Shown here: positions 29,515 to 38,413 of the stretch, one piece after another
Numbering within the stretch: the stretch's first letter is position 1
Layout: every line of letters starts with the position of its first letter
DNA from: a virus
IMG/VR virus record: IMGVR_UViG_3300027896_000010
Coordinates: 32,001 to 96,000 of that record
Strand: one strand, 5' to 3'
DNA length: 64,000 nt
The notes under the pieces: generated by a model
Seen by the model: the letters and a program-made list of their open reading frames with translations, nothing else
Database searches by the model: none
What the model was told of the DNA's origin: nothing
Program-made: the position numbers and the translations under genes

Positions 29515-29889
29515 CTAAAACATCATCTTCAGCCTACGCTCAGTAACCGTAAACCACTCCTTATGAACCAAAACTCTCGGCTCATTATTGACTACTGTTA
29601 TCTCCTTGGCTCTAGATACCACAACACTCATCTCACCTTCGTAAACCTGTCCAGAGTCCATCTCATGTATCACTATCCCCTCTATATTGGAGTCAACCCT
29701 GAACTGATTCCATAACCTTAATGGCAACAGCCAAGCCTCATTAGATTCACTATAGCCCGTGAACTCTCCAGCATTAGCGATACTAAGAGCTTTCACATGA
29801 GCCAAATTACCATCAAGCATGGCAAGAACCAATCCTGTACCACTTCTTATTGCTTTGATTTCAAACCCAATTCCATCTGATGTTGACAT
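29515..29889 (-). CDS. Hypothetical protein
   Basis: ORF track; operon packing. Confidence 0.65.
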   Translation of the reverse strand: MSTSDGIGFEIKAIRSGTGLVLAMLDGNLAHVKALSIANAGEFTGYSESNEAWLLPLRLWNQFRVDSNIEGIVIHEMDSGQVYEGEMSVVVSRAKEITVVNNEPRVLVHKEWFTVTERRLKMMF

Positions 29890-30605
29890 AGCAAACTACC
29901 ATCTGCCCATATCTCTAACCCTGCTTTGATAGCGGTTCTACAAAAAGCGATGTCTTCTCCTTGTCCATCCCAATCATATCGACAAAGACTTGCGGCCTTA
30001 TAGCTCATCAAATAAATAGCTCCTGTGACATCACAGGGGAACAAAGTTTGTGGAAATACTGATATGTGATTTGCATACTGCAAGTTCTCTTTGTCGGCAA
30101 AAATCATCACATTCGTTCTGCGATTGCGTGGGGTTAATCTTGGCTGGTAGGGTTTCCCTCTGATTTGAATCCCATCATTGTAAACACAAGCCGCTATGAT
30201 ATCTTTCTTGTGATTTAACAGCCTCATCAGCGTCCCTACCGGGGCGATAATGTCTGTATCCACACTGAAGAAATAATCCCAGCCATGTTCCACCACTTCA
30301 TCAAGCAACATATTCCGATAACTAGCCAGTGCATAGTAACGAGCCGAAGTCCTATAGTCAAAGGACTCTCCCTTGGCATGAATAAGCTTGATAGGATACT
30401 TATCTTGAAACTTCTCTTGGAACATTTTCATGATATGAACTGTAATATCATTACAATTATTGAGCACAAAAGCGTAACCGACTTCAATGTCAGAGCTGGG
30501 TGCGTGTTGAGCCACCAGTGATGCTAGGTAATCTGGTAGCATCTCTTCTCGGTTATGAACTGGCGCTCCAATAAGAATCCGTTTCTTACTCATTTCTTCT
30601 GCCAA
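29847..30605 (-). CDS. GT2 glycosyltransferase
   Basis: ILIGAPVHNRE; RN.LLD; FSVDTD; GEDIAFC. Confidence 0.85.
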   Translation of the reverse strand: MAEEMSKKRILIGAPVHNREEMLPDYLASLVAQHAPSSDIEVGYAFVLNNCNDITVHIMKMFQEKFQDKYPIKLIHAKGESFDYRTSARYYALASYRNMLLDEVVEHGWDYFFSVDTDIIAPVGTLMRLLNHKKDIIAACVYNDGIQIRGKPYQPRLTPRNRRTNVMIFADKENLQYANHISVFPQTLFPCDVTGAIYLMSYKAASLCRYDWDGQGEDIAFCRTAIKAGLEIWADGSLLCQHQMELGLKSKQ

Positions 30606-31564
30606 AGCTCCTCATAGACATCTGCTATTGATGACCAACTCTGTGACAATGCCCATTGTCTATTGCCTTCCATTACCTCTGGTGGTATGCCCTCCCGTAT
30701 TCTTAATGTGATGTCTTCAAGACTAATCACGCTTGCCGTGATTAACTTACCGGGGAACCATTCCACGTAATCTCGTTTGAGATTATTAGTCCATAACGAT
30801 ATCACCGACTTGAAATTCGCCAACCCCTTAAGCATGGATAAATAACCACCAGCAAAAACATAGCTGGCTTTCTCATAAAGCTCAGAATACTCGTCCATCC
30901 ACCCATGCAAATCAACATCCAAATTATAGGAACCAATATATTCAAGCAAAGACTCTTCTACCTTCGGATGACCTCCTCCCACAATATCAAGTTTTGGTTC
31001 CCAGCCATCATTCTTGAGACAAGCCAACAAACCCAAATAGGACATCAAATCCATATCGTCCCTTAGACCGCCTACCCAGATGAATCTCTGTGGCTCCATC
31101 TTATCCATCGGGACAATATCCTCTGCCCCAATCCCTCCCCAAATATTGAAATCACATTTGGTTCCATACCATCGCTCAAGATACATGCCAACACCAATCG
31201 AACCATCACATTTCTCTTTGATTATCTGACGCTTTTGCACCACCGATTCCTCTGGTGGATAACGCCCCTCCCAGCCGTGAAATGTCATAGTTATTTTGGG
31301 AGCATATTCACGAAGCTTATCAGAATAAGTATAGAAATCCTGACAGGCGATGATGTCATATTTCTCGGCAGGAATGAATCTGTTATGGTCGTCACTTACC
31401 CTGCGAATCTTGTATTCATACGTCAGCCCTTTCCAGCCGGGAGTGGTGCATTGAACCGTTACATCGTGCTTCCTTCTGGTAAGCTCCGAAGCCACTCGGT
31501 CTACATGAATCTCAACCCCGCCAATCAAAGGCAAATGGCGACCAGTAAGAAGTAAAATCTTCAT
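30590..31564 (-). CDS. GT4 (GT-B) glycosyltransferase
   Basis: MKILLLT...GGVEIHV..VA.EL..R.HDVTV; C-terminal SWS.IAD.YEEL. Confidence 0.82.
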   Translation of the reverse strand: MKILLLTGRHLPLIGGVEIHVDRVASELTRRKHDVTVQCTTPGWKGLTYEYKIRRVSDDHNRFIPAEKYDIIACQDFYTYSDKLREYAPKITMTFHGWEGRYPPEESVVQKRQIIKEKCDGSIGVGMYLERWYGTKCDFNIWGGIGAEDIVPMDKMEPQRFIWVGGLRDDMDLMSYLGLLACLKNDGWEPKLDIVGGGHPKVEESLLEYIGSYNLDVDLHGWMDEYSELYEKASYVFAGGYLSMLKGLANFKSVISLWTNNLKRDYVEWFPGKLITASVISLEDITLRIREGIPPEVMEGNRQWALSQSWSSIADVYEELWQKK

Positions 31565-37131: not shown

Positions 37132-37859
37132 GTCTGTCTCGTAATCTTGTAGTTGTGCAGGGGCGGGAACGTAGCACTCAAATCCCAATGACGTTCAAGC
37201 TTGAGTTTGAAATAATCTGGGTAGTCCCGCCATGCATCCCAGCCCTGATGGTATACCTCATGTTCAAAGCGCCCTGTAATAAAACCCGACTGTTGTATGA
37301 AGCCTATTAGCACAGCATCAGCTATAGCTAATGATGTTTGCATAAACGCATCAAGTTGCTGTTTCCTAATACAAGTAAAATAGCCCCCGAAATTCGTTTG
37401 GGGGCAAAATCCATATTTGATATCAAAATAAGCTCGAAGCTCCCCGAAAGCTTTATTGGGTGTATCATAGAAATTGCTCATGTCAGTAGGCCAGCCCATT
37501 ATGCCCACCTCAGAGAATCCGAACGCCCTTCTCATCTCTCCAATCCAATCAACAGGCTTGTGGAAAAGAACATCAGAATCAGTCACCATCACAAAGGCAT
37601 CCGAATCTTCTCCCGGGAGATTCAACTGATAACCATATCGATATGCTTGGAGCATAAGGTTATCTTTGAACTGGATGAAAGTCTGGACTTTACCTATCTC
37701 GATGCGGTGGAGGATACTGGACTCTAACTCAGAACTGCGTTCGCTTCTGTTTTCAAGAATCGTTAAGTGAATAGGCTCACTAGCATTAGCTACTATACTA
37801 TCTATGAACCGTTCTGTGTACTCCAGACAATAATATGCCAGTGCATAAACATATATCAT
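37128..37859 (-). CDS. Probable glycosyltransferase (GT-A-like)
   Basis: ITILEN.S; MVTDSD (DxD); glycan-cluster context. Confidence 0.55.
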   Translation of the reverse strand: MIYVYALAYYCLEYTERFIDSIVANASEPIHLTILENRSERSSELESSILHRIEIGKVQTFIQFKDNLMLQAYRYGYQLNLPGEDSDAFVMVTDSDVLFHKPVDWIGEMRRAFGFSEVGIMGWPTDMSNFYDTPNKAFGELRAYFDIKYGFCPQTNFGGYFTCIRKQQLDAFMQTSLAIADAVLIGFIQQSGFITGRFEHEVYHQGWDAWRDYPDYFKLKLERHWDLSATFPPLHNYKITRQT

Positions 37860-38413
37860 GCCTTCCCCTCGGACTCTTCGAGCCTCGCCTGTGCTTCTAG
37901 CACAGGGCGCTTGGGTCTGGTGCCAATCTTTTTAACAGGCACCCCCACGTACACAGACCATGGCTCTAGAGTAGAATCTGCCAGCACTAAAGCGCCAGCA
38001 CCTATTATCGTCCCTTCAGGGATATCATTATCTGGCAACACAATAGCGTTAGCACCAACAAAGACATATTTTCCAAGCCTAATAAACGAACGCCTCACAC
38101 CCCTGAACTCATCTGGAATTGTGGGGTTATTGAGCAGATATGGGTCTTCGGTGCCAGAGAATAAACGAATCCCTGAAGATATACAAACGTAATCCTCCAA
38201 GAAAGCTTCTCCACCACCAGTAATCGATGTAAATGAAGCAATGTGAATATGATTCCCAATAAAAAGCGCAAGATGCTTTCCTATGAAAACGAAGTCGTCA
38301 ATAACGATATGATTGCCAAGACTGATTACCTCTGGCGAGATAATCTTAGCAAGAGGATATATCGTTACATCTTCGCCTACGCTCTTATAACTATCCTGCC
38401 AGTACTCTATCAT
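37856..38413 (-). CDS. Hexapeptide-repeat acyltransferase (VioB-like)
   Basis: LGNHIVIDDFVFI; IGNHIHIA; VFVGANAIVLP; GVPVKKI. Confidence 0.88.
   Translation of the reverse strand: MIEYWQDSYKSVGEDVTIYPLAKIISPEVISLGNHIVIDDFVFIGKHLALFIGNHIHIASFTSITGGGEAFLEDYVCISSGIRLFSGTEDPYLLNNPTIPDEFRGVRRSFIRLGKYVFVGANAIVLPDNDIPEGTIIGAGALVLADSTLEPWSVYVGVPVKKIGTRPKRPVLEAQARLEESEGKA

Follow-up and report, generated by a model that had tools for sequence, protein, structure and literature searches.

The window analysed here, a 64-kb stretch comprising bases 32001-96000 of a single 193,437-bp IMG/VR virus record (IMGVR_UViG_3300027896_000010), carries a cluster of nine glycan genes at 29847-38413. Together with outlying genes, the cluster appears to specify a soluble, cytoplasmic glycan-building kit of approximately 14 sugar-making or sugar-transferring enzymes, and the most likely acceptor of the glycan, in our judgement and with confidence no better than even, is the set of virion proteins of the phage itself. 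An initiating transferase, a flippase, a polymerase and multi-pass membrane proteins of any kind are missing from the genome, and the cluster has terminase and endolysin genes as neighbours; this combination suggests that the glycan is most likely added to a protein whose assembly takes place in the cytoplasm.

A sequence-only reading of this stretch had described nine contiguous, co-oriented glycan genes, and these proved to be real: all nine lie on the minus strand and overlap or are separated by gaps of at most 64 nucleotides, and the families named are matched in Pfam, NCBIfam, Protein Data Bank (PDB) sequences or structure models. The genes, with one small open reading frame (ORF) among them and lengths in amino acids (aa), are the following (GT, glycosyltransferase; PLP, pyridoxal phosphate; SAM, S-adenosylmethionine).

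37856..38413, minus strand: AntD-like hexapeptide N-acyltransferase, 185 aa (AntD structure match).
37128..37859, minus strand: divergent GT-A fold glycosyltransferase, 243 aa (ESM Atlas model).
36070..37188, minus strand: DegT/DesI-like PLP sugar 4-aminotransferase, 372 aa (PF01041, 306 bits).
35216..36082, minus strand: GT2 glycosyltransferase, 288 aa (PF00535, 51 bits).
33424..35199, minus strand: fusion of a CgeB-like GT-B and a class I SAM methyltransferase, 591 aa (PF13524, 87 bits, plus Methyltransf_25/23/12).
32362..33423, minus strand: polysaccharide pyruvyl transferase, CsaB-like, 353 aa (PF04230, 80 bits; cut-off 25).
32140..32352, minus strand: 70-aa ORF within the cluster, conserved in the relative L014, no function known.
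31629..32171, minus strand: small class I SAM methyltransferase, 180 aa (Methyltransf_11, 45 bits).
30590..31564, minus strand: GT4-type GT-B glycosyltransferase, 324 aa (PF13439, N-terminal domain, 33 bits).
29847..30605, minus strand: Anp1-like GT-A glycosyltransferase, 252 aa (PF03452, 39 bits; PF00535, 25 bits).

The cluster had also been placed directly upstream of the terminase gene. It does lie upstream, but not directly, given that two small ORFs intervene.

29515..29889, minus strand: conserved 124-aa protein between the cluster and the terminase, no family match.
29293..29505, minus strand: conserved 70-aa zinc-ribbon-like ORF right before the terminase (faint Zn_ribbon_8 match in the L014 homolog).
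27509..29200, minus strand: terminase large subunit, the downstream landmark (phrog_17415, phrog_2).

From their sequences, the first three genes of the cluster are predicted to act as a cassette that both makes and transfers an N-acyl-4-amino-4,6-dideoxyhexose; they encode the AntD-like, GT-A and DesI-like enzymes. The Pfam match of the acyltransferase falls under the cut-off (25 bits), and its best solved relative is Bacillus cereus AntD (3vbi/3vbn series; 103 bits, E 1.4e-28, residues 8-175), with the second-best solved protein scoring only 30 bits. The 3vbn entry is B. cereus AntD with coenzyme A and deoxythymidine diphosphate (dTDP) bound (PMC6031040), and the phage enzyme is predicted to N-acylate a dTDP-4-amino-4,6-dideoxyhexose. 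The aminotransferase, which contains an SFHATK lysine motif, has DesI both as its top NCBIfam model (TIGR04427; 247 bits, under the cut-off of 650) and as the solved structure that it matches best (2po3; 172 bits). The NCBIfam models that follow are without exception C-4 aminotransferases, and perosamine synthetases stand near the top of the structure matches. The co-occurrence of a DesI-like aminotransferase with an AntD-like acyltransferase leads to the predicted product, a dTDP-4-N-acyl-4-amino-4,6-dideoxyhexose of the viosamine/anthrose family. The 243-aa protein encoded between these two has no Pfam, PHROG or PDB sequence match; its ESM Atlas model (predicted template-modelling score 0.82) resembles GT2 clusters at template-modelling scores of 0.65-0.72, and a DSD motif is present. 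An AlphaFold2 model of this protein built without an alignment (predicted local distance difference test score 32) was set aside, and the ESM Atlas model was used. Judging from the position of its gene between those for the acyltransferase and the aminotransferase, this GT-A enzyme likely transfers the amino sugar of the cassette.

Among the remaining cluster proteins, the pyruvyl transferase has CsaB as its sole NCBIfam match (TIGR03609; 87.6 bits, under the cut-off of 213) and no sequence match among solved structures. The decorating set is completed by two or three SAM methyltransferase domains, stand-alone or fused. For the 180-aa methyltransferase, we considered and rejected the possibility that it is a frameshifted fragment, as its motif I (GIDVCCGG) is intact and the homolog in a close relative is of equal length. 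The 252-aa Anp1-like GT carries a DTD motif.

Four further genes in the window, all outside the cluster, had been assigned to sugar metabolism in the sequence-only reading.

20477..22207, minus strand: zinc ribbon plus two GT-A domains, 576 aa (PF00535, 105 bits; weak Anp1 match in the second half).
39856..40452, minus strand: hexapeptide O-acetyltransferase of the xenobiotic (CatB/Vat) class, 198 aa (Hexapep, 33 bits).
43532..44638, minus strand: second CgeB-like glycosyltransferase, 368 aa (PF13524, 53 bits).
44638..45714, minus strand: WecB, non-hydrolysing UDP-GlcNAc (uridine diphosphate N-acetylglucosamine) 2-epimerase, 358 aa (PF02350, 263 bits).

The families of all four stand, and only the sugar role of the acetyltransferase is in doubt: its nearest solved relatives are CatB8 (94 bits; type B chloramphenicol) and Vat (streptogramin) enzymes, so that its place in the glycan pathway is uncertain and it may not be a sugar enzyme. 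WecB scores above the equivalog cut-off (TIGR00236; 291 bits compared to 210), which indicates that UDP-N-acetylmannosamine (UDP-ManNAc) is made. The 576-aa double GT-A protein contains the motifs NND/DTD and DDD/GED, and the second half of its homolog in the relative aligns with the 252-aa Anp1-like GT. An extra GT2 gene outside the window, at genome positions 12967-13455, is the eighth glycosyltransferase gene, in addition to the seven in the window.

Searches for absent functions covered the whole 193-kb genome and used families each of which was detected in 10-14 control genomes. No 4,6-dehydratase or short-chain dehydrogenase/reductase-type epimerase (GDP_Man_Dehyd, PF16363; Epimerase, PF01370), no nucleotidyltransferase (NTP_transferase; RmlA), no initiating transferase (Bac_transf) and no Wzx flippase (Polysacc_synt) was found, with positive controls in each case. 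A hydrophobicity scan over the same 193 kb detected no genuine ORF with at least three membrane-like segments; the six multi-segment candidates that it returned were rejected as antisense shadows of long genes. The lack of a flippase, polymerase or membrane component and of a nucleotide-sugar 4,6-dehydratase, initially noticed in the window, thus extends to the whole genome, by profile searches and hydrophobicity in the former case; the search of the remaining genome for RmlB and Wzx that had been proposed at that stage recovered neither. With no dehydratase or nucleotidyltransferase in the phage, the keto-sugar precursor presumably comes from the host.

The same hydrophobicity scan behaves differently on bacterial loci. 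A search of 1.84 billion proteins yielded 620 cluster representatives of the GT4 family (E<=1e-3); of the 45 metagenome loci with GT4 homologs and a length of 6 kb or more, 36 contain ORFs with at least six segments. The scan also flags two bacterial clusters, one with Bac_transf, Rml genes, Wzx and a pyruvyl transferase (L020) and one with Wzy (L021), whereas no multi-pass membrane ORF was detected in the phage-type loci L014, L017 and L018.

These phage-type loci share parts of the module. In L018, a distant phage-like contig, there is a run of Anp1-GT2, GT2, CgeB-like GT, pyruvyl transferase, GT4 (31%) and Amidase_3 genes, bordered by genes for a beta-propeller protein and a UvsW-type helicase; five of the module proteins align with those of the window at 25-33% identity (33% for the 288-aa GT2). 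A PS_pyruv_trans gene is found in the same module in both L018 and L019. In L017, likewise phage-like and distant, the GT4 homolog (35%) has an Anp1-like GT2 as its neighbour, and the surrounding polymerase and ThyX genes contain inteins; the pairing of these two GTs is seen in our phage, L014, L017 and L018. In a direct comparison, the GT4 of the window aligns with those of L017 and L018 at 31-34% identity. A 50% GT4 homolog was also found on ENA contigs, behind a 575-aa fusion of a CgeB-like GT and a methyltransferase and a Methyltransf_11 gene. Among 50,697 GenBank phage records, the pyruvyl transferase and the GT4 have no homolog and the Anp1-like GT2 has a single one, in an archaeal virus, whereas DegT homologs are present in 80 records, mostly of cyanophages. 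The 462-kb uncultured phage LR756500.1 was considered as a relative and rejected, as it shares the aminotransferase only. Pattern scans of IMG/VR with the pyruvyl transferase, terminase, DNA polymerase and GT4 alignment yielded no relatives, a word-index search with the pyruvyl transferase returned only the query itself, and the literature searched contains no description of a phage-borne pyruvyl-transferase glycan module.

A close relative is the 37.6-kb Logan contig SRR15116522_147564 (loci L014 and L015), whose terminase (P0068) is 79% identical to that of our phage. In a gene-by-gene comparison, the conserved genes keep the same order and positions, with the following protein identities.

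GT2 of 288 aa: 75%.
CgeB-like GT half of the fusion: 49%, there a stand-alone 344-aa protein.
70-aa ORF at 32140-32352: 59%, there a 71-aa ORF.
Methyltransferase of 180 aa: 67%.
GT4 of 324 aa: 69%.
Anp1-like GT2 of 252 aa: 67%.
124-aa ORF: 58%.
70-aa zinc-ribbon ORF: 57%.
Terminase: 79%.
Double GT-A: 70%, there a 582-aa protein.

L014 lacks the acyltransferase, the 243-aa GT-A, the aminotransferase and the pyruvyl transferase, and its CgeB-like GT has no methyltransferase domain attached. Conversely, the relative alone encodes a protein of the CmcI-type rhamnosyl O-methyltransferase family (138 bits), an FkbM-type methyltransferase, another Methyltransf_11 protein and several unknowns. Because the core is kept and the cassettes differ, the backbone enzymes move along with the phage, and it is the genes for precursor supply and decoration that are exchanged. 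In the relative, the full GT2 copy is immediately preceded by a 46-aa ORF (L014:2540-2680) that repeats the GT2 N-terminus (71% identity to residues 9-53 of the 288-aa GT2); this repeat is likely a scar of recombination or cassette exchange.

The genome as a whole is that of an uncultured contractile-tailed phage (myovirus), in which a genome-wide search detected the terminase, major head protein (genome 170661-171680), portal, head protease, sheath (genome 163229-164818) and baseplate wedge; the record is linear and approximately 95% complete (CheckV). The window encodes a DnaE-type polymerase, a DnaB-type helicase, NrdD and a RecA/UvsX-like protein, and the minus strand holds almost all genes. 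The capsid protein shares 41% identity with its counterparts in Gordonia and Rhodococcus myoviruses and in cluster C mycobacteriophages (Myrna, ScottMcG), and the terminase large subunit shares approximately 25% with the enzymes of Finch, Pupper and Myrna. The GC content is even across the window (0.43-0.46), with no compositional island. The phage is a lytic-type myovirus; no integrase or lysogeny context was noticed, although no search aimed at one was made. As for clues to the host, there is no WhiB motif, no S-layer-homology (SLH) domain is encoded, and no tRNA was found within the 80 kb scanned.

Scans for sigma-70 promoters and terminators over 27000-46500 gave sites not above those in shuffled sequence, and a 9-mer count over 47 intergenic regions revealed no common promoter motif, so that the timing of expression cannot be assigned. 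Upstream of the WecB block, at window positions 47338-47733, a small helix-turn-helix protein resembles sigma-70 region 4 weakly (~20 bits) and could serve the genes downstream as a transcription factor of the phage. The gene directly upstream of the cluster (38500-39303) specifies a 267-aa protein with a hydrophobic anchor at the N-terminus and a C-terminal domain rich in Cys, which has no Pfam or PHROG match and whose ESM Atlas features point weakly (0.93) toward glucosaminidase-type wall hydrolases. In addition, small nucleoside 2-deoxyribosyltransferase-like proteins (23548-23964 and 41737-42198; weak matches) and an HD-domain-like protein (19891-20583) are encoded near the sugar genes. 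The deoxyribosyltransferase-like protein at 23548-23964 and the HD-like protein are conserved in the relative, and these neighbours may act on the nucleotide pool.

Several observations favour the virion proteins as the acceptor. The genes lie among late genes, beside the terminase and lysis genes; the membrane partners of the bacterial counterparts are all missing; the outer-sugar cassettes are swapped between close relatives; and the capsid is kin (41%) to that of Myrna, for which glycosylated proteins have been reported (PMC12363180, citing Freeman 2023).

Other observations weigh against this assignment. The capsid protein lacks a Ser/Thr-rich C-terminal tail, the proteome contains no collagen-like repeats, and no acceptor motif was found. 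Kinship with Myrna stops short of the enzymes, given that a tblastn search of the fusion, the double GT-A, the GT4 and the Anp1-like GT2 against the 50,697 phage records matched no actinophage or mycobacteriophage gene. The neighbours of the module also vary: it lies beside the terminase in our phage, beside genes for replication in L017 and, in L018, beside genes that putatively encode fibres and endolysin. Undecaprenyl-linked or teichoic-acid intermediates of the host can serve as substrates for soluble glycosyltransferases, and CsaB is among the enzymes that use them. Furthermore, the DesI and CsaB scores fall under the equivalog cut-offs, so that the identities of the sugars are not certain, and a few genes may be missing from a linear record of approximately 95% completeness.

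The only candidate acceptors, both on weak clues, are two proteins encoded outside the window. At genome positions 28538-29422, 3.5 kb before the window start (L010:16538-17422), is the gene for a papain-like peptidase (phrog_16701) whose chain continues into a perfect (PT)15-PS linker and then a Cys-rich tail of basic character. In some bacteria, linkers of the PT kind are classic sites of O-glycosylation, and this peptidase is a speculative candidate, the clue being weak. The second, a weak candidate, is a 137-aa protein (genome 109092-109505; 77092-77505 in window numbering, past the window end) with one membrane anchor and a Ser/Thr/Asp-rich tract containing 21 Ser or Thr in 30 residues.

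The second-ranked explanation, which we consider unlikely, is remodelling of the host envelope. Working on the cytoplasmic face, the enzymes would modify lipid-linked or teichoic-acid-type intermediates of host wall polymers, for instance through pyruvylation of the ManNAc of a secondary cell-wall polymer, and host transporters would export the products; with the same low probability, the altered surface would block superinfection or keep the progeny off cell debris. CsaB, the sole NCBIfam match of the pyruvyl transferase, pyruvylates the ManNAc of the secondary cell-wall polymer on a lipid-linked precursor, and WecB provides UDP-ManNAc. The bacterial GT4 homologs sit in classical surface-polysaccharide clusters, and wall hydrolases are encoded near the module (Amidase_3 in our phage and in L018, NlpC/P60 in L014). 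However, a set of approximately 14 genes with its own backbone GTs far exceeds the needs of known surface-converting phages, the genes lie amid the terminase and lysis genes of a large myovirus, and the genome encodes neither an SLH-domain protein nor an initiating transferase or transporter.

It is less probable still, and in our view improbable, that the glycan is built on some other cytoplasmic acceptor, such as host proteins, non-structural phage proteins or a small molecule, rather than on an exposed virion surface. No sequence feature names the acceptor, and the nearby acetyltransferase is of a xenobiotic class, both of which would fit such a target. Nevertheless, eight GT genes, a core kept across deeply divergent phages and swappable cassettes make up the pattern expected of an exposed glycan under diversifying selection, and no genes for the biosynthesis of an aglycone are present.

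Hypermodification of the phage DNA, in which an oligosaccharide assembled by the GTs on a modified base would block restriction, is in our view very improbable. Phage GTs related to those for lipopolysaccharide or teichoic acid do glycosylate DNA, and their clusters can adjoin terminase or structural genes (Pyle et al., 10.1101/2023.12.21.572611). The thymidine of the Yersinia phage YerA41 carries an oligosaccharide-like group of approximately 1 kDa, and DNA glycosylation has been proposed for that phage (PMC9023294) and shown for phages that glycosylate 5-hydroxymethylcytosine (5hmC) and 5-hydroxycytosine (5hoC). The deoxyribosyltransferase-like pair and the HD-domain protein nearby are compatible with this possibility, as is the TET-associated glycosyltransferase (TAGT; PF20691, 148 bits) that the relative encodes at L015:10001-12563, together with a 467-aa protein with a weak CgeB-like match. 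That spot, however, is separate from the cluster, between homologs of the window genes 19032-19442 and 17062-17562, and the corresponding region of our phage (window ~17600-19000) contains a gene for a 199-aa unknown protein and non-coding DNA; the differing content indicates that the spot is variable, and the TAGT is absent from our phage even though the cluster is kept. Moreover, the DNA sugar routes in the literature surveyed all require either a ThyA homolog or a C5 methyltransferase with TET, whereas a genome-wide search found no thymidylate-synthase homolog (PF00303), C5 DNA methyltransferase (PF00145) or TAGT. There was no Tet_JBP (PF12851) match either, but no control genome gave a match for that family. 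Amino-sugar N-acylation, pyruvylation and O-methylation are not among the DNA glycans described in the literature surveyed.

Finally, we consider it the longest shot that the phage coats its particle specifically with 4,6-pyruvyl-ManNAc (by way of WecB and the CsaB-like enzyme), the ligand of SLH domains on host wall polymers, mimicking the wall polymer and thereby docking onto wall-anchoring proteins or hiding among them; if this were true, the swappable outer cassette (N-acyl-viosamine in our phage, extra O-methylations in the relative) would tune recognition.

The enzymes can be arranged in a putative pathway. Under this model, RmlA and RmlB of the host would provide dTDP-4-keto-6-deoxyglucose, which the cassette would turn into a dTDP-4-N-acyl-4-amino-4,6-dideoxyhexose of the N-acyl-viosamine type before transferring the sugar. 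WecB would provide UDP-ManNAc, and the conserved core of GT2, CgeB-like GT, GT4, Anp1-like GT2 and double GT-A would build the backbone, to be decorated by the pyruvyl transferase and the methyltransferases. The glycan would then be attached to the virion proteins in the cytoplasm, yielding a coated particle whose outer sugars differ between related phages. Sugars of the N-acyl-viosamine type have precedents on protein surface structures, namely on the exosporium protein BclA (PMC7793302), and the fibrils of Mimivirus carry 2OMeVio4NAc (PMC10117803).

Parts of this system resemble known ones. In Actinobacteriophages such as Che8, Corndog and Myrna, soluble GTs, in some cases with methyltransferases, are thought to act on capsid and tail-tube proteins in the cytoplasm (Freeman et al. 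2023, as cited in PMC12363180 and PMC12619734). The likeness consists in phage-encoded soluble GTs without membrane export partners. Unlike those phages, which have few GTs, our phage encodes eight, along with an aminotransferase, an N-acyltransferase, an epimerase and a pyruvyl transferase, and the four GTs queried have no homolog in actinophages.

The resemblance to giant-virus fibril glycosylation clusters proposed in the sequence-only reading is confirmed with respect to the Mimivirus R132-L143 cluster (PMC10117803), which shares the enzyme classes aminotransferase, acyl- or acetyltransferase, methyltransferase, pyruvyl transferase and several GTs; the likeness is one of enzyme classes. 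As in Mimivirus and other Megavirinae, the predicted products include an N-acyl, possibly O-methyl, viosamine and a pyruvylated N-acetylhexosamine, and the clade-specific content of the Megavirinae clusters parallels the swapping of cassettes described here (PMC10117803, PMC8456856). Unlike the phage, Mimivirus encodes its own 4,6-dehydratase (R141) and a fibril acceptor, the GMC oxidoreductase R135, in the cluster; no GMC oxidoreductase family match was found among the cluster proteins of the phage or their neighbours, the rest of the genome not having been searched for one. The virus described here is also a tailed phage, and its host is a bacterium.

The cassette itself resembles the anthrose pathway of Bacillus (antABCD), in which an AntD enzyme is likewise clustered with a 4-aminotransferase and a GT, as antB, antC and antD. 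In Bacillus, anthrose decorates BclA, a glycoprotein of the exosporium (PMC7793302). The exosporium layer is assembled inside the mother cell. Unlike in the anthrose pathway, the aminotransferase of the phage is nearest to DesI, below the equivalog level, no collagen-like acceptor is encoded, and RmlA and RmlB are not provided by the phage. With bacterial Wzx/Wzy clusters such as L020, the phage shares homologous GT4 (~30-33%), GT2 and PS_pyruv_trans genes. L020 makes its own dTDP-sugar via Rml-type genes. The phage versions, by contrast, have shed everything that equips the bacterial clusters for export and precursor supply, namely Bac_transf, Wzx or Wzy and the genes that synthesise sugar nucleotides.

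Taken together, three elements of this analysis are new: the AntD/DesI cassette, the contrast to bacterial clusters that do carry membrane equipment, and the organisation into a core plus cassettes. The comparison shows a route by which a phage can take a bacterial surface-polysaccharide cluster and strip it of every membrane step. It also offers enzymes that can be tested, namely the DesI/AntD-type pair and a pyruvyl transferase without a homolog in GenBank phages. The combination of a conserved backbone with differing outer cassettes suggests selection on the particle surface as seen by hosts, defences or grazers. If the glycan is on the particle, it would be the tailed-phage counterpart of giant-virus fibril glycans, far more elaborate than the few-enzyme systems of mycobacteriophages.

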